The position numbers and the translations under genes were made by a program. The notes beneath the pieces are model-generated. The model was not told where the DNA came from. It searched no databases and was given only the letters and a program-made list of their open reading frames with translations. This document shows, in pieces, positions 1 to 37,822 of a stretch of DNA of 64,000 bases; positions within the stretch are counted from its first letter, which is position 1, and every line of letters begins with the position of its first letter. Source of the DNA: Bacillota bacterium (GTDB lineage: Bacteria > Bacillota > Limnochordia > DTU087); the NCBI GenBank assembly GCA_012798695.1, contig JAAZMR010000079.1, positions 9,733 through 73,732 of the forward strand. The letters are read 5' to 3'.

Positions 1-75
1 AGGAGTCTCTTCCTAATACGTGAAGGGACTCCTAACACATAGGATACTAGAAAGACATACTAAGGGGGTCAGATT

Positions 76-198
76 ATGGGGCGAAAATGCAGACGCAGGG
101 AGCAGTATGGAGATTTCCTGCATATTTTCGAAGAACCAATAGTCCTGTGTCTACTGCTGCTGCTATTAGAGATTGTTCTGATCATTTTTCTGACCTGA
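76..198 (+). CDS. unannotated 40-aa mini-protein (MGRKCRRREQYGDFLHIFEEPIVLCLLLLLLEIVLIIFLT), basic N-terminus plus single C-terminal TM helix
   Basis: ATG at 76 preceded by AAGGGGG (62-68) with 7-nt spacing. Clean stop at 196-198. Below the 60-aa ORF-track cutoff. Hydrophobic C-terminal segment of about 20 residues. Confidence 0.35.
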   Translation: MGRKCRRREQYGDFLHIFEEPIVLCLLLLLLEIVLIIFLT

Positions 199-259
199 TC
201 GATTATCGGCTGAAATACGGGCCTGATAATGCTAAGGGGCGCTAAAGGAGGCGAGATGC

Positions 260-520
260 ATGTCCCATGATCAGGAATCACGGGATCTGGTTGCAGAGAA
301 TCTGCTCAAGAACATGGGCAGTATCCTTAGCGGGGTAGCCGACTTTATGGAGACTGCCGAACGCATCATTACGTCATTACATCTGCTCGCTAAGGCTGTC
401 GAGTCCATGGAAGAGGATGGGTCTCTTGTGCGATTGGCTGAGCTTCTGCAAGAAGCCGGCCAAAGTCGCGGCCAAATGGCAGAAGAATCGTCTCCAGTCC
501 CCATTTCCCCTGAGGACTAA
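260..520 (+). CDS. hypothetical 86-aa acidic helical protein
   Basis: ORF-track entry. AAGGAGG at 244-250, 9 nt before ATG 260. No recognisable family. Confidence 0.45.
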   Translation: MSHDQESRDLVAENLLKNMGSILSGVADFMETAERIITSLHLLAKAVESMEEDGSLVRLAELLQEAGQSRGQMAEESSPVPISPED

Positions 521-651
521 ATGGGATAGGAATCCGGTTTCCGCATTTGCAGCTGACCCGTATAGTGAAGCAGGTTACTACTGCTGTCAGCTATGCACCA
601 TGACCTAGTAAACGCTGATGGAGAAACATGGAACCTAAAGGGGGGCTGAAA

Positions 652-747
652 ATGTCCAGGGGTGGAGACTTAGATGAGTTGTTGGTGATTCTGCTATTGA
701 TCGCTTTGATCGTAGTTGTAGTCTTCGCGATCAGTGAGATAATTTGA
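652..747 (+). CDS. unannotated 31-aa mini-protein (MSRGGDLDELLVILLLIALIVVVVFAISEII), acidic N-terminus plus TM helix. In-frame alternative start at 628.
   Basis: ATG 652 after AAAGGGGGG. Stop TGA 745-747. Below the ORF-track cutoff. About 20 consecutive hydrophobic residues. Confidence 0.35.
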   Translation: MSRGGDLDELLVILLLIALIVVVVFAISEII

Positions 748-841
748 GCCGGCCCAAGGAACTAGCCTTTCAGATGCAACCACACTCATGTTGGGCCGAT
801 GCAGTTCATTGGTACAACGTGGTGCATCGACCCTTTAGCTA

Positions 842-877
842 GCCTCTGTCGCAAGACAGGGGCTTGTTTGCATTTTA
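842..877 (+). terminator. rho-independent terminator (stem CCTCTGTC / GACAGGGG, then TTGTTTGCATTTTATT)
   Basis: Hairpin followed by a T-rich tract downstream of the small-ORF cluster. Confidence 0.5.
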
Positions 878-1029
878 TTAACCCTATGTTAGCATGATAA
901 CAACATGGAATAGCAGGAATTGCACACCAGCGAATCTAAGTCTCCTGATGGGACATTATCAGGGTTAGCGGGACCGGGTTGGCCTACTGGGTCTCCTTGC
1001 CCGAATCATGGTGAGTAAAGAGTGGTTCT

Positions 1030-21926: not shown

Positions 21927-22066
21927 AGCTAAGTTCGGCTGCTCAGATTATAGCTGACTGACATCTATTACTAATTGAAAAACAGACAACAATGATCTAC
22001 AATAACGGAGCGGTGCTCTCAGGGCATCGCTCTCGTTTGCTTATATCGAGTAAGGAGGGTTGTGCA

Positions 22067-22771
22067 ATGCTGTTATTTGAAGATAGATATGTAAAACTAC
22101 TTGGTTCGGCTTTGGCTCTCAGCCTAGTACTGATCAGCATAATCATGGCGGTATCAGCAGCCTTAATGCCGACAAATACGTTGAACATGGCCAGAAGCAT
22201 CGATGAAGGCAGGGCAAAAACAGATGCCGTTGACCAAGATGCTAACATAGTGCCAGTGATGCCCCAGGGCAGACCTGCAGCCCAGAATGAACAGAGCCAG
22301 GTACAGCAATCAGAGGTCCGAGCGAGATCGGCAGAGGCGGGCTCTGGCAATACACTGAGGGATAACGCCGATGGCAAAGCGACAACAACTTCACCACGGT
22401 CGCAGCCAAGCGGCCTTTCCGAGGGAGACATATGGTTGATGGCTCAGCTTATCCATGCAGAAGGTCGAGGTGAACCTCTGGAGGGCCAGGTAGCCATTGG
22501 TGCAGTCTTGCTCAACCGCGTAGGAGATAAACGTTTTCCAAATTCGTTGGCAGGAGTAATCTACCAGCAGGGAGCGTTCTGTACCGTACGGGATGGACAG
22601 ATCAACCTGTCTCCAGATGGCAATGCCCTCAAGGCAGCCAGACTAGCGGCAGCCGGTTGGGATCCTACCGGGGGGGCACTGTACTTCTATAACCCGGCCC
22701 GCAGCACCTCTCGCTGGATCTACAGTCGGCCAGTGATCACACGTATCGGCCGTCATGTCTTTGCCGCCTAG
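22067..22771 (+). CDS. cell-wall hydrolase, SleB/CwlJ family, with N-terminal TM anchor
   Basis: AQLIHAEGRGEPLEGQVAIGAVLLNRV ... GQF-type catalytic region. AGGAGG RBS at ATG 22067. Confidence 0.75.
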   Translation: MLLFEDRYVKLLGSALALSLVLISIIMAVSAALMPTNTLNMARSIDEGRAKTDAVDQDANIVPVMPQGRPAAQNEQSQVQQSEVRARSAEAGSGNTLRDNADGKATTTSPRSQPSGLSEGDIWLMAQLIHAEGRGEPLEGQVAIGAVLLNRVGDKRFPNSLAGVIYQQGAFCTVRDGQINLSPDGNALKAARLAAAGWDPTGGALYFYNPARSTSRWIYSRPVITRIGRHVFAA

Positions 22772-23002: not shown

Positions 23003-24064
23003 GTGTCGAGCGAGATGACGCCCAGGGAGCGATGGTTGGCAGTATTGAGGCGCGAACAGACAGATCGGGTCCCCATGGACTACTGGGCCACGCCGGAAGC
23101 AACAGAGCGGTTGATGGCCCATCTGGGTTGTACTGAAGAGGAAGAGGTGTACCGGCGCCTGCACATCGACAAGGTCGTGACTGTGGGCCCCCGTTACATA
23201 GGCCCTGCCTTACCTAAAAACGAAAACATATTTGGTGTACGTTATCGAGATGTTGATTACGGGACTGGAACTTACCAAGAATGTATCTACCATCCTTTAG
23301 CCAAATATGAGACTGTAGAAGAGATCGTGGCCGAGTACCGCTGGCCCTGCCCGGATTGGTTTGACTATTCCCACATCCCTCAAGAGGTTGAGGGTTTTGC
23401 GGATTATTATCCCATCCGGGGTGGGGGTTCTGAGCCGTTTTTGACCTATTGTCAATTAAGGGGTCAACAGCAAGCCTTGATTGACTTGATTCTATGCCCC
23501 GAGATTGTCCACTATTGCTTGGATAAACTCTTTGAGCTTTGCTATATCGACACTATGCGGATATATGAGCAGATTCCGGGGAAGGTAATGTTGACCTATG
23601 TAGCTGAGGACATGGGGACACAGGAAAATCTGCTCTTTGCACCAAGCCAGATTCGGGAGTTTTTACTGCCCCGTATGCAAAGAATGATTGATTTGGCTCA
23701 CGAGGCCGGTGCCTATGTGTTTCATCACAGTGATGGAGCAATACGGGAAATCATTCCAGATATGATTGGGCTGGGTATTGATATCCTCAATCCGATCCAA
23801 TGGCGCTGTCGGGGGATGGAACGCAAAGCTTTGAAACGGGATTTTGGGCAACACCTGATTTTCCATGGAGGAGTTGACAACCAGCATACTTTGGTGTTCG
23901 GCTCACCAGATGATGTACGTCAAGAGGTGAAAGACAATATTCGGATCTTGGGAGCAGGAGGTGGCTACATACTAGCTCCTTGCCACAATATTCAAGCGGT
24001 TAGCCCTCCGGAGAATATCGTGGCTATGTATGAGGCTGGCTATGAATATGGCCAAAGTGGTTGA
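23003..24064 (+). CDS. uroporphyrinogen-decarboxylase (URO-D) family protein, MtaA-like methyltransferase paralog 1
   Basis: URO-D fold N-terminus (RVPMDYWATPE) and GGGYILAPCHNIQ near the C-terminus. GTG start. Confidence 0.75.
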   Translation: MSSEMTPRERWLAVLRREQTDRVPMDYWATPEATERLMAHLGCTEEEEVYRRLHIDKVVTVGPRYIGPALPKNENIFGVRYRDVDYGTGTYQECIYHPLAKYETVEEIVAEYRWPCPDWFDYSHIPQEVEGFADYYPIRGGGSEPFLTYCQLRGQQQALIDLILCPEIVHYCLDKLFELCYIDTMRIYEQIPGKVMLTYVAEDMGTQENLLFAPSQIREFLLPRMQRMIDLAHEAGAYVFHHSDGAIREIIPDMIGLGIDILNPIQWRCRGMERKALKRDFGQHLIFHGGVDNQHTLVFGSPDDVRQEVKDNIRILGAGGGYILAPCHNIQAVSPPENIVAMYEAGYEYGQSG

Positions 24065-32971: not shown

Positions 32972-34012
32972 GTGACAGCTTTAGAGCGAGTCAGCAAAAC
33001 TCTGCGATTAGAAGAGCCCGATCGAGTACCAGTATATCCAATACTTAGCGGTGTCACCCGTCACCTAGTGAATGCGAGTTATCGGGAGTGGGCCACTAAC
33101 GCGGAAATTTGTGCCGCAGCTTACATCAAAGCGGCTGAACAGTATCGGCTGGATGTCATCTGCACTTTGACAGATCTATCAGTGGAGGCCGCTGATTTTG
33201 GTGCCCAAATAGTTTACCCGGAAAATGAGGCAGCCCACCCTGAATTCGGCACACGGCGTCTTGCTGCTGTAGAGGACTACCGCACCGTGCAACCCGTAGA
33301 TCCACATACGGGCCCTCGGATGAGCGAGCATATCAAGCTGTGCCAGAGGTTGGTAGAAGCTAAGGGGAAGGAAATACCGATAGTTGCCTTTACCTTTGGC
33401 CCGTTAGGAATCACCAGCATGCTAAGAGGTCAGGAAGAGTTCTTTATGGATCTGATCTTGGAACCAGAGGCGGTCAAGTATGCTATTGCAGCAGTAACGG
33501 AAACCTTGATGGACTATTATGATGCCTTGATGGATACAGGGGTGCATGCTATCATGATGGATACCCTATTTGCCTCTGAATCGATTATGAGCAAATCTAT
33601 GTGGCTGGAGTTTGAAGGGGAATATGTAAGACGTTTGGCAGAGCGAGTCCACGAGCGGGGTTGCATGATGATGGTTCACAATTGCGGTAATGGCATCTAT
33701 TTTGATGCCCAGATTGAGACTATGCAACCAGAAGCGATTTCCTTTCTCCATCTTCCAGACGATGTGACAACTCCGGCTGAGTTGAAAAAGAAGTATGGGC
33801 ACCAGACTACCCTCATCGGACATGTTGATCCTACCTGGATCGTTCAGGCCAGCGAAGATGAGGTAAGAGATGAGTGCAAAAAGCAAATCGATCTATATAA
33901 ACAGGGTGGCGGATACATCCTGGCCACGGGATGTGAGTACCCCGCCAATGCTGATCTGCGTAATGCAGAGGTGATGGTGGAAACCGCCGAGACCTATGGG
34001 CGATATGCGTGA
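32972..34012 (+). CDS. URO-D family methyltransferase, MtaA/CmuA-like (Zn-binding H-x-C-G type), paralog 2
   Basis: MMVHNCGNG (H-x-C-G) and C-terminal GGGYILATGCE Cys, characteristic of corrinoid:substrate methyltransferases. GTG start after AGGAGG. Confidence 0.75.
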   Translation: MTALERVSKTLRLEEPDRVPVYPILSGVTRHLVNASYREWATNAEICAAAYIKAAEQYRLDVICTLTDLSVEAADFGAQIVYPENEAAHPEFGTRRLAAVEDYRTVQPVDPHTGPRMSEHIKLCQRLVEAKGKEIPIVAFTFGPLGITSMLRGQEEFFMDLILEPEAVKYAIAAVTETLMDYYDALMDTGVHAIMMDTLFASESIMSKSMWLEFEGEYVRRLAERVHERGCMMMVHNCGNGIYFDAQIETMQPEAISFLHLPDDVTTPAELKKKYGHQTTLIGHVDPTWIVQASEDEVRDECKKQIDLYKQGGGYILATGCEYPANADLRNAEVMVETAETYGRYA

Positions 34013-36483: not shown

Positions 36484-36562
36484 TCGCATATCGTAATTGG
36501 TTGGTAGGGATTGGCTCTGATAGTGCTGTTAGTTCTTCCTAGAGTCTATGAGGGGGGAAATC

Positions 36563-37822
36563 ATGGCTCGGAGTGTTACGCCTTTTGGTGTGATGGTCAA
36601 ACCTGCGGGTCCGGCATGTAACTTGGCCTGTCAGTATTGTTTCTATCTTGACAAATCAGCTCTCTTTCCTGAGTCGCGGACTTTCCGGATGGATGAGAAC
36701 TTGTTAGAGGAGTTTATCCGTCAGTATTTTGAGCTTCAGCCGGGTCCGATGGTGCCGTTCGTTTGGCAAGGGGGTGAACCGAGTTTGATGGGTCTGGAGT
36801 TCTTTGAAAAGGTGGTAGAACTCCAAGACCGCTACTTGCCGTCTGGTTGGCGAGTGACGAACGCTTTCCAGACTAATGGCACGCTGCTCACCGAAGAGTG
36901 GTGCGATTTCTTTCACGAGCATGATTTTCTAGTGGGGATTAGTCTAGACGGGCCACCAGAGCTACATGATGTTTACCGGCAGAATAAACAAGGTGGCCCC
37001 ACGGCCACTGTAGTCTTGCAGGCTTTACACCTGCTGCAAGAAAAGAATGTGGAATATAATATTCTGTGTGTAGTCAATGATGTGAATGCCCAGCATCCTC
37101 TTTCAGTCTACGAATTCTTCCGGGCTCAAGGTGTGCAGCATGTTCAGTTTATTCCATTGGTTGAGCATTTAGGCAATGGCAGAACCACTACTAGATCGGT
37201 ATCAGGTTTGGCGTATGGCCGGTTTCTTACCGCGATTTTCAACGAGTGGGTAGCTCATGATCTGGGGCAGATGTTTGTTCAGCTGTTTGAAGAATGCCTA
37301 TCGGTATGGGCTGGCTATGGTTCCCATCTCTGCGTTCTCGCACCGACTTGCGGGCAGCAGCTGATCCTGGAACATAATGGAGATTTATACGTATGTGATC
37401 ATTTCGTATTTCCCAGATTCAAGCTCGGGAATCTGCGGCAGAAGCCTCTTCATGAGTTAATCGAATCTCCACAGTTAAGGGATTTTGGTTTAGATAAGCG
37501 TCGTAGGTTGCCTGACTATTGCCGGCAATGCGAAGTGCTATTCATGTGCAACGGGGGATGCCCCAAGGACCGTTTTCTTTCCACTCCTTCAGGGGAGGAG
37601 GGCCTCAACTATCTTTGCGCGGGATATAAGCAATTCCTCAACTATGTTACTCCATTCATGGAGGATATGGCCGACTTGTTTCATCAGCGAGCACCACTGG
37701 CAGTGATGCAAGAGGGGGCAGTCACACGTATTCATGATTTGTGGAGACATGTCGGCCGCAATGAGCCGTGTCCGTGTGGAAGTGGACTAAAATACAAGAA
37801 GTGTTGTCAGGGGCTACAATGA
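36563..37822 (+). CDS. radical SAM/SPASM enzyme, anaerobic sulfatase-maturating-enzyme (anSME)-like, with C-terminal SEC-C zinc motif
   Basis: CNLACQYC (Cx3Cx2C) near the N-terminus; FQTNGTLLTEEW; Cys-rich SPASM region; C-terminal EPCPCGSGLKYKKCC. GAGGGGGG RBS at ATG 36563. Confidence 0.8.
   Translation: MARSVTPFGVMVKPAGPACNLACQYCFYLDKSALFPESRTFRMDENLLEEFIRQYFELQPGPMVPFVWQGGEPSLMGLEFFEKVVELQDRYLPSGWRVTNAFQTNGTLLTEEWCDFFHEHDFLVGISLDGPPELHDVYRQNKQGGPTATVVLQALHLLQEKNVEYNILCVVNDVNAQHPLSVYEFFRAQGVQHVQFIPLVEHLGNGRTTTRSVSGLAYGRFLTAIFNEWVAHDLGQMFVQLFEECLSVWAGYGSHLCVLAPTCGQQLILEHNGDLYVCDHFVFPRFKLGNLRQKPLHELIESPQLRDFGLDKRRRLPDYCRQCEVLFMCNGGCPKDRFLSTPSGEEGLNYLCAGYKQFLNYVTPFMEDMADLFHQRAPLAVMQEGAVTRIHDLWRHVGRNEPCPCGSGLKYKKCCQGLQ

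Follow-up and report, generated by a model that had tools for sequence, protein, structure and literature searches.

Small genes at the left edge of the window

The left end of a 64,000-nucleotide stretch of DNA from an uncultured Bacillota bacterium (assembly GCA_012798695.1, contig JAAZMR010000079.1, positions 9,733 to 73,732 of the forward strand; hereafter the window, whose coordinates are used unless a contig is named) carries three small co-directional genes, two of which, B and A2, encode mini-proteins with one transmembrane (TM) helix each, while the gene between them encodes a protein of 86 amino acids (aa). They belong to a cluster of six genes, of which the window shows the right half and cuts off the rest at its left edge. 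A search for exact copies of the 86-aa protein led to contigs from biogas-fermenter metagenomes, among them L001, whose sequence agrees with the window except at 2 of 4000 bases and reaches 8.5 kb further left; left of window position 1 it holds the genes for a 94-aa protein and a 77-aa protein and an uncalled 26-aa open reading frame (ORF), MLDELLIVLIVIALAVVVGFAIKEIA, here called A1. The full gene order is 94 aa, 77 aa, A1 (26 aa, TM), B (40 aa, TM), 86-90 aa and A2 (31 aa, TM). The genes inside the window are:

76-198, + strand: gene B, tail-anchored mini-protein of 40 aa (predicted); Shine-Dalgarno (SD) sequence AAGGGGG at 62-68, 7 nucleotides (nt) before the ATG
260-520, + strand: 86-aa gene (89-type), acidic (net charge -11) and helical; SD AAGGAGG at 245-251, 8 nt before the ATG
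652-747, + strand: gene A2, single-pass mini-protein of 31 aa; SD AAAGGGGGG at 637-645, 6 nt before the ATG

Gene B has a basic N-terminus, an acidic segment of the FLxIFEEP type and a TM helix reaching the C-terminus, the conserved core of the 86-aa protein is ETAERIITSLHLIAKSVQSMEEDGSL, and A2 follows the pattern MSRGG-DLDELL-TM-SEII, in which acidic residues flank the TM helix on both sides. An earlier note, written from the window sequence alone, had proposed these three ORFs as genes, and its coordinates are right, while the spacer before the ATG of the 86-aa gene is 8 nt and not 9. Its alternative start for A2, the in-frame ATG at 628, has to be given up, since L007 has ACG in place of this codon, which lies inside the A2 leader, and in L015 it does not share the frame; the start of A2 is therefore 652.

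For comparison, syntenic loci were located via homologues of the 86-aa and 77-aa proteins, which gave 12 distinct lineages (L001, L007, L009, L012, L015, L018, L023, L024, L026, L029, L025 and L028). The window ORFs stay in frame in syntenic loci where the neighbouring proteins are only 35-65% identical: the B frame is kept in 8 lineages, with a length of exactly 40 aa in 8/8, the A2 frame (31-aa type) in 9, a tenth contig (L009) stopping within the A2 leader, and the A1 frame (26-aa type) in 7. Nei-Gojobori counts of synonymous (pS) and non-synonymous (pN) differences gave pS 0.34-0.75 and pN 0.05-0.20 for A2, pS 0.58-0.67 and pN 0.05-0.13 for A1, and pS 0.52-0.86 and pN 0.18-0.35 for B, which means that the synonymous sites of the mini-ORFs are near saturation and non-synonymous change is low. 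Judged from this pattern of substitution, the three window ORFs are protein-coding genes under strong purifying selection on the protein. The comparison of frames in relatives, which the earlier note had suggested as a check, thus bears out its claim that all three ORFs, the 86-aa one as well as the two mini-ORFs, are genuine genes, as frames and SD sequences are kept and pN lies well below a nearly saturated pS.

The same note had called the mini-proteins unannotated. In the NCBI record of the metagenome-assembled genome (MAG), the consecutive locus tags GX998_08440, GX998_08445 and GX998_08450 go to the 94-, 77- and 86-aa genes only, so the mini-ORFs are indeed unannotated there; the gene calls of ENA and Logan do contain 40-aa and 39-aa products, and for these the description does not hold.

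The opposite explanation, that the region is a 5' leader or non-coding RNA of the downstream gene for a FAH-family hydrolase (1030-1824), or that the frames are chance ones, draws on the fact that such ORFs are short enough to occur by chance in a single sequence, and on the conserved non-coding blocks between them. However, frames, lengths, starts and SD sequences are all conserved with pN far below pS, and there is no Rfam match. The FAH gene lies between the cluster and the operon for ATP synthase (atp) in 4 of the 11 lineages whose contigs reach that far and is absent from the other 7, while the cluster is kept in 11/11; it looks like a lineage-specific insertion, not a partner of the small genes. 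A leader of the FAH gene was the case that the earlier note had itself named as fatal to its proposal, and that case fails, with FAH missing from 7 of 11 lineages that all have the cluster. We consider the whole explanation almost certainly wrong.

Relationships within the cluster and search for known families

Searches with the six cluster proteins against Pfam, NCBIfam, PHROGs and PADLOC returned nothing above noise, those against PDB sequences and, by tblastn, against phage and plasmid collections returned no match, and Rfam gave no match at the gathering score and noise only at E <= 5. In a fold search the structure model of the 86-aa protein matched only generic coiled coils; the 94-aa protein, modelled from its single sequence, forms a small bundle of helices, for which no convincing structural match was found. 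In the literature, there was nothing relevant on comparable atp-linked small membrane proteins. The opinion that the 86-aa protein belongs to no recognised family, and that the module matches none known, is therefore upheld by blank results in Pfam, NCBIfam, PHROGs, PADLOC, PDB and Rfam. On the strength of these comparisons, the cluster comprises five protein families without curated relatives and is an undescribed, lineage-restricted small-protein system.

The families are partly related to each other. The 77-aa and 86-90-aa families are paralogous (hhalign probability 96.8%, E 2.5e-10) and have the core TAExIxxSLHxL...M.xDGSL in common, and alignment makes A1 (26 aa) a clear paralogue of A2 (31 aa), while comparing the 94-aa family with those of 77 and 86 aa revealed no relation. 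Residues 1-22 of B are similar to the start of the 77-aa family (probability 63%, E 7e-5), and the TM helix of B is similar to that of the A peptides (probability 35%); the sequences compared are short and of low complexity, and B may be a chimera of soluble-type and A-type members. The AlphaFold2 (AF2) model of the 86-aa protein (mean confidence, pLDDT, 78.7) has helices at 2-53 and 55-74 with a kink at the invariant DG, in line with the earlier description of this protein as all-helical. As judged from these relationships, tandem duplication enlarged the cluster, the duplicated unit consisting of one soluble protein with a kinked helix and one single-pass mini-protein with acidic caps.

Distribution of the cluster

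The three soluble genes (94, 77 and 86-90 aa) are present in 12/12 lineages, and the mini-genes vary as follows:

A1, B and A2 all present: L001, L007, L012, L024, L026, L029
A1 and B: L009, whose contig stops before A2
B and A2: L015
A2 only: L018, L023
No mini-gene on either strand: L025, L028

In the last two, the 94-, 77- and 89-type genes (L025 4646-5545, L028 3677-4518) apparently form one operon behind the same promoter-like element as elsewhere (described below), and both A-type elements and TM mini-ORFs are missing, the latter from both strands.

Word-indexed searches covering 5.8 billion proteins found 5, 7 and 20 of them, and a full hidden Markov model search of 1.84 billion protein representatives gave 17 matches at E <= 1e-3, of which 0 were annotated; the GTDB species set contains 3 loci of the cluster. 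A metagenome scan with the A-peptide alignment gave 600 pattern matches, 0 of them confirmed by tblastn, and a broad alignment of 24 sequences was too diverse to find loci. Within the databases searched, the cluster is confined to one narrow, uncultured clade of biogas-reactor Bacillota.

Promoter-like elements and terminators

The non-coding blocks between the genes were found as strongly conserved stretches of the DNA alignment and then sorted into copies of elements. Four of them are copies of one two-part element with the consensus TTCCYRTWTSC, a spacer of fixed length and CRTAnnnTAWAGCAG, and one copy stands ahead of each transcription unit (94-77, A1, B-89 and A2). The copies and the features around them are:

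Left of the window: element before the 94-aa gene; -35-like TTCCTATTTGC, N15, -10-like ACATAGCATATAGCAGG; kept in 11 lineages regardless of the upstream gene; follows a hairpin
Left of the window: element before A1 (c1); -35-like TCCCGTTTC, N17, GTATAGT; 7/7 copies
1-33, + strand: near-perfect inverted repeat between A1 and B, AGGAGTCTCTTCC, loop TAATACGT, GAAGGGACTCCT; kept in 6 lineages
10-52, + strand: element before B; -35-like TTCCTATATGC, N15-16, -10-like ACATAGGATATAGCAG; 6 lineages
10-20, + strand: -35-like box of the B element, TTCCTAATACG, within the 5' arm and loop of the inverted repeat
37-52, + strand: -10-like box of the B element, ACATAGGATACTAG (ACATAGGATATAGCAG in relatives), near-identical to the box of the 94-aa gene
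532-574, + strand: element before A2 (c2); TCCSGTTTC, N18, GTATAGTRRANCAGG; 10/10 copies
575-651, + strand: A2 leader with the conserved block CTGRTGGNGAAACATGGAAC and the SD sequence AAAGGGGGG
841-877, + strand: intrinsic terminator of the A2 unit; GC-rich hairpin at 841-864, then a T-rich tail

In the window, c2 reads ATCCGGTTTCCGC, a 14-nt spacer and CGTATAGTGAAGCAGG, the spacer being variable in sequence and fixed in length; the gap from GTTTC to GTATAGT is 18 nt in 10/10 c2 copies and 17 nt in 7/7 c1 copies. Outside the clusters, neither the rest of the 64-kb window nor the flanks of the retrieved loci contained a copy of the element, and a scan of JGI metagenomes with the c2 DNA pattern gave one match, by chance, in an unrelated high-GC contig.

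Most lineages have intrinsic terminators after the 77-aa, 89-aa and A2 genes, while the A1 unit ends at the inverted repeat without a T-run. Since terminators follow the 77- and 89-aa genes, A1 and A2 need promoters of their own. The lineage of the window has lost the terminator after the 86-aa gene and, from the stretch separating the 77-aa gene from A1, both terminator and element, and therefore B, the 86-aa gene and A2 can be read there as one unit ending at 841-877. The earlier picture of three genes closed by one terminator thus describes a possible reading in this lineage, although the genes are really the right half of six, and it cannot be extended to the relatives, most of which have four transcription units, each with its own promoter-like element. 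The terminator itself, previously placed at 842..877, is present at 841-877 and is conserved as a structure in 9 lineages (96.3% of cells paired, compensatory changes at 2 pairs).

Because the spacer is fixed in length and variable in sequence, because terminators precede the copies, and because there are four of them, we favour the reading of the element as a putative promoter. Assignment to sigma-A, B, H, W or the extracytoplasmic function (ECF) group was tried and rejected, as their consensus sequences do not fit the element; in the case of sigma-E/sigma-K only the -10 part fits.

A terminator-like hairpin at L001 7590-7625 stands directly before the -35-like box of the 94-aa gene, and at the same position in 10 other lineages. 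Its stem is wholly different between the clades (CAGGGGGCC..GGCCCCCTG versus GGAGTAGAGGGC..GTCCTCTACTCC), while the loop (AAAAT) and tail are conserved whatever gene lies upstream.

The A2 leader was also considered as a structured RNA or riboswitch and was dropped as such: the alifold energy is -12.25 kcal/mol with a covariation term of +0.45, the consensus is weak, the fold z-score of -1.47 is not significant, and single-sequence folds have no common architecture. One helix of the leader does show a compensatory change in the window sequence.

The -10-like box and sporulation

CATAnnnTA is the -10 consensus of sigma-E and sigma-K promoters. The -10-like boxes before the 94-aa gene and B match it perfectly, and those before A1 and A2 have one mismatch, which brings in the possibility that the cluster belongs to a mother-cell regulon (sigma-E/sigma-K type) of tiny membrane and coat-associated proteins made during sporulation. 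In addition, the window encodes a cortex hydrolase of the SleB/CwlJ type (cell-wall hydrolase, Pfam Hydrolase_2, 21992-22771), which suggests that the organism forms endospores; when 20 other window genes were screened with Pfam for sporulation genes whose promoters are known, the SleB-type hydrolase alone was found. It has been described that sigma-E and sigma-K have one -10 sequence in common, and that sigma-K promoters have a -35 element of 5 nt (..AT. or ..AC.) separated from the -10 by a gap of 14-16 nt (PMC517825). The -35-like box TTCCYRTWTSC and its spacing are unlike this description of sigma-K, no match was found to SpoVM, YjcZ/tiny_TM or other models of small sporulation proteins, and the family is absent from all other spore formers.

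The known sporulation mini-proteins (SpoVM, CmpA and the YjcZ/tiny_TM_bacill family) resemble the cluster in being tiny hydrophobic or amphipathic peptides, and the host of the cluster is a probable spore former; its -10-like box is of the same CATAnnnTA type as in sigma-E/sigma-K promoters, whereas the -35-like box and the spacing differ, no model matches, and the cluster is limited to one narrow clade. A role in sporulation is therefore unlikely in our opinion, and the sporulation mini-proteins that the earlier note had mentioned survive as a weak idea, for which the -10-like box and the hydrolase are suggestive and against which stand the unmatched models and the ill-fitting -35 part.

Comparison with toxins, holins and bacteriocins

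Peptides of less than 45 aa with one TM helix in tandem copies would also fit loci similar to type I toxin-antitoxin systems, in which hydrophobic mini-proteins damage the membrane and are checked by a structured leader or an antisense RNA. The box upstream of A2 is complementary to the A2 SD sequence, and in clade I a sigma-70-like promoter on the minus strand just beyond the A2 terminator is aimed back at A2. Type I toxins are fast-evolving and patchily distributed; the peptides described here are near-invariant at a fixed position in the core genome. Additionally, the saturation of synonymous sites in the ORFs means that they are not constrained by an overlapping functional RNA, the minus-strand promoter is missing in clade II, the leader fold (z -1.47, alifold covariation term +0.45) gives no support, and no known toxin family was matched in Pfam or NCBIfam. 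With the type I toxins of Bacillota (Fst/Ldr, TxpA, BsrG/BsrE and YonT), the cluster has in common the size, the single TM helix, the tandem multiplicity and the long leaders, as well as, in one clade only, a possible convergent promoter. It differs from them in the acidic, not basic or aromatic, ends of its peptides, their near-invariance, the fixed syntenic position, the soluble paralogues alongside and the lack of any family match or conserved antisense signal. We regard a toxin function as improbable.

Directly past the A2 terminator, at 865-960, lies a block that is conserved in clade I, both where FAH comes next and where atpZ does, and absent in clade II. It contains the conserved segments GCATTTTATTAACCCTATSTTAGCATGATAAC, TAGCAGGAATTGC and GCTAAGTCT and sigma-70-like hexamers on both strands, the minus-strand TTATCA-17-TAAAAT (900..872) facing A2. 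This block may serve as a promoter, either for an antisense transcript or for the next gene, or may be a small RNA, and perhaps lies outside the cluster.

Genes of the holin-like family, lrgA and lrgB, are located directly upstream of the cluster in at least 7 lineages, and the peptides are small and hydrophobic, as would be expected if they were holins or antiholins, or bacteriocins encoded together with an immunity protein, such that the peptides lesion the membrane or are exported and the helical proteins protect the producer. However, lrgAB is missing from the neighbourhood in 5 lineages, where other genes take the upstream position (the upstream neighbours differ by lineage: lrgAB, ROK/SIS, a polyprenyl synthase or a single-domain response regulator). 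There is no gene for an endolysin, a transporter or a leader peptidase, no double-glycine or signal leader, and no PHROG, PADLOC, phage or plasmid match. Holins carry a charged C-terminal tail. Such a tail is lacking here, as B ends inside its TM helix and the A peptides have 4-5 acidic or aliphatic residues after theirs. A holin or bacteriocin function is thus very improbable, and the suggestion that the genes form a toxin/immunity or holin module found no backing in phage, plasmid or defence matches, in an endolysin gene or in a conserved antisense signal.

Position next to the ATP synthase operon

In 11/11 lineages whose contigs extend far enough, the cluster is the immediate upstream neighbour of the operon for the F1Fo ATP synthase (atpZ/atpI-atpB...), the contig of the twelfth (L009) ending inside the cluster. 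This constant position despite variable upstream neighbours, together with the extreme conservation of the TM peptides, raises the question of an accessory or regulatory module of the ATP synthase, in which the peptides would dock on Fo as tiny subunits or assembly factors and the 77- and 86-aa proteins would inhibit F1 in the manner of IF1, zeta or AtpTheta. The soluble proteins are single long helices of 75-90 aa, which is the general shape of IF1. Small helical inhibitors of F1 (mitochondrial IF1, alpha-proteobacterial zeta and cyanobacterial AtpTheta) are, like the cluster proteins, about 50-100 aa long, mostly one long helix and charged, and the bacterial ones are encoded near the ATP synthase or functionally tied to it, as the cluster abuts the atp operon.

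On the other side, a terminator and a separate sigma-A-type atp promoter divide the cluster from atp, so that the two are not co-transcribed, FAH sits between them in 4 lineages, and synteny in one narrow clade may be plain inherited gene order. Unlike the inhibitors, with which there is no relation in sequence or fold beyond a generic coiled coil, the cluster is transcribed apart from atp, and its proteins show no similarity in sequence or fold to any ATP synthase component or inhibitor. It seems unlikely, then, that the cluster is such a module. Given its constant position, the ATP synthase is nevertheless the most interesting candidate target, to which separate transcription and possibly inherited gene order leave a low probability. 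The more specific proposal, that the cluster supplies new accessory or regulatory parts of F1Fo in an uncultured, anaerobic clade of Bacillota (two IF1-like kinked-helix proteins and near-invariant, Fo-docking single-pass peptides) controlled as a block by a class of promoter that fits no described sigma factor or regulator, would be a little less likely still.

The atp operon itself has the promoter TTGACG-17-TATAGT with a TG extension (1895-1923) and a leader of about 185 nt that is conserved across lineages (1895-2107 region). Within this leader, CCCCTAGCGGTATAATTAGTAGGGG is followed by TTGTATTTATTG (about 2000-2040), which by eye could form an attenuator hairpin.

Protein properties and a proposed small membrane complex

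The mini-proteins (40, 31 and 26 aa) reach maximum KD(15) hydropathy values of 3.4-3.9, with 3.4 for B, and their prediction in the earlier note as single-pass proteins anchored at the C-terminus is in agreement with hydropathy and the position of the TM helix. B carries a charge of +2 to +4 over its first 12 residues and its TM helix runs to the last residue, the typical layout of a tail-anchored protein, whose N-terminus is predicted to face the inside. In A1 and A2 the TM helix is flanked by acidic residues on either side, with only 4-5 acidic or aliphatic residues after it. Among the soluble proteins, those of 77 aa begin with a polybasic run (+4 to +7) and those of 86-90 aa with a neutral-to-acidic segment (0 to -3). 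Identity between the two clades is 76-84% for the A peptides, 67% for the 94-aa protein, 46% for the 77- and 89-type proteins and 40% for B. Such conservation of the A peptides, the highest in the cluster, speaks for a contact in the membrane that depends on their sequence, and against a generic hydrophobic segment.

The interpretation that we prefer, and to which we would give a probability of about 0.5, is that single-pass membrane peptides and coiled-coil partners of complementary charge are co-regulated and form a small complex. The four units would be switched on together by one dedicated factor, other than the standard sigma-A reader of -35 sequences. The mini-proteins would insert in the membrane as single-pass peptides, with the basic N-terminus of B in the cytoplasm, and would serve as membrane partners or anchors for the soluble coiled-coil proteins of complementary charge: the 77-aa protein, through its polybasic N-terminus, would meet the A peptides at their acidic ends, and B, through its basic N-terminus, would meet the 86-aa protein at its acidic N-terminus. 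The outcome would be a small membrane-associated complex.

Several points weigh against this complex. The -35-like box of A2 is at the same time complementary to the A2 SD sequence, the A peptides are without a positive-inside signal, and the pairing of peptides with proteins is inferred solely from gene order, duplication history and charge. Furthermore, L025 and L028 keep the three soluble genes without the mini-ORFs, and several other lineages have one A peptide with two helical paralogues; the soluble proteins are therefore not strictly dependent on the peptides.

Small single-pass membrane partners or regulators are known in KdpF, AcrZ, MgtS and Prli42, and in animals in sarcolipin and phospholamban. 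These have 25-40 aa, one TM helix and almost no soluble domain, as do the peptides of the cluster; their genes lie beside or near those of a larger membrane machine, and they act by specific helix-helix contact. The conservation of the TM helix in the A peptides fits this mode of contact. There is no sequence relation to these regulators, and the cluster differs from them in combining three peptides, paralogous or chimeric, with an equal number of small soluble helical proteins, and in having a dedicated promoter-like element for each unit.

Other observations in the window

Two further observations concern genes away from the cluster. A radical SAM protein with a SPASM domain (36548-37822) carries a C-terminal SEC-C motif, a combination that is unusual, and two paralogues of the URO-D family (uroporphyrinogen decarboxylase-like; 23003-24064 and 32972-34012) lie less than 10 kb apart.

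Significance

ORFs of less than 50 aa, overlooked in the NCBI annotation of this MAG, can rank with the most strongly constrained genes of their locus. With five families and a dedicated regulatory motif in four copies, the cluster offers a clean, self-contained system for tiny membrane peptides with small soluble partners. If the position next to atp is functional, it would indicate regulators of energy conservation not described before, in the fermenting bacteria behind anaerobic digestion.

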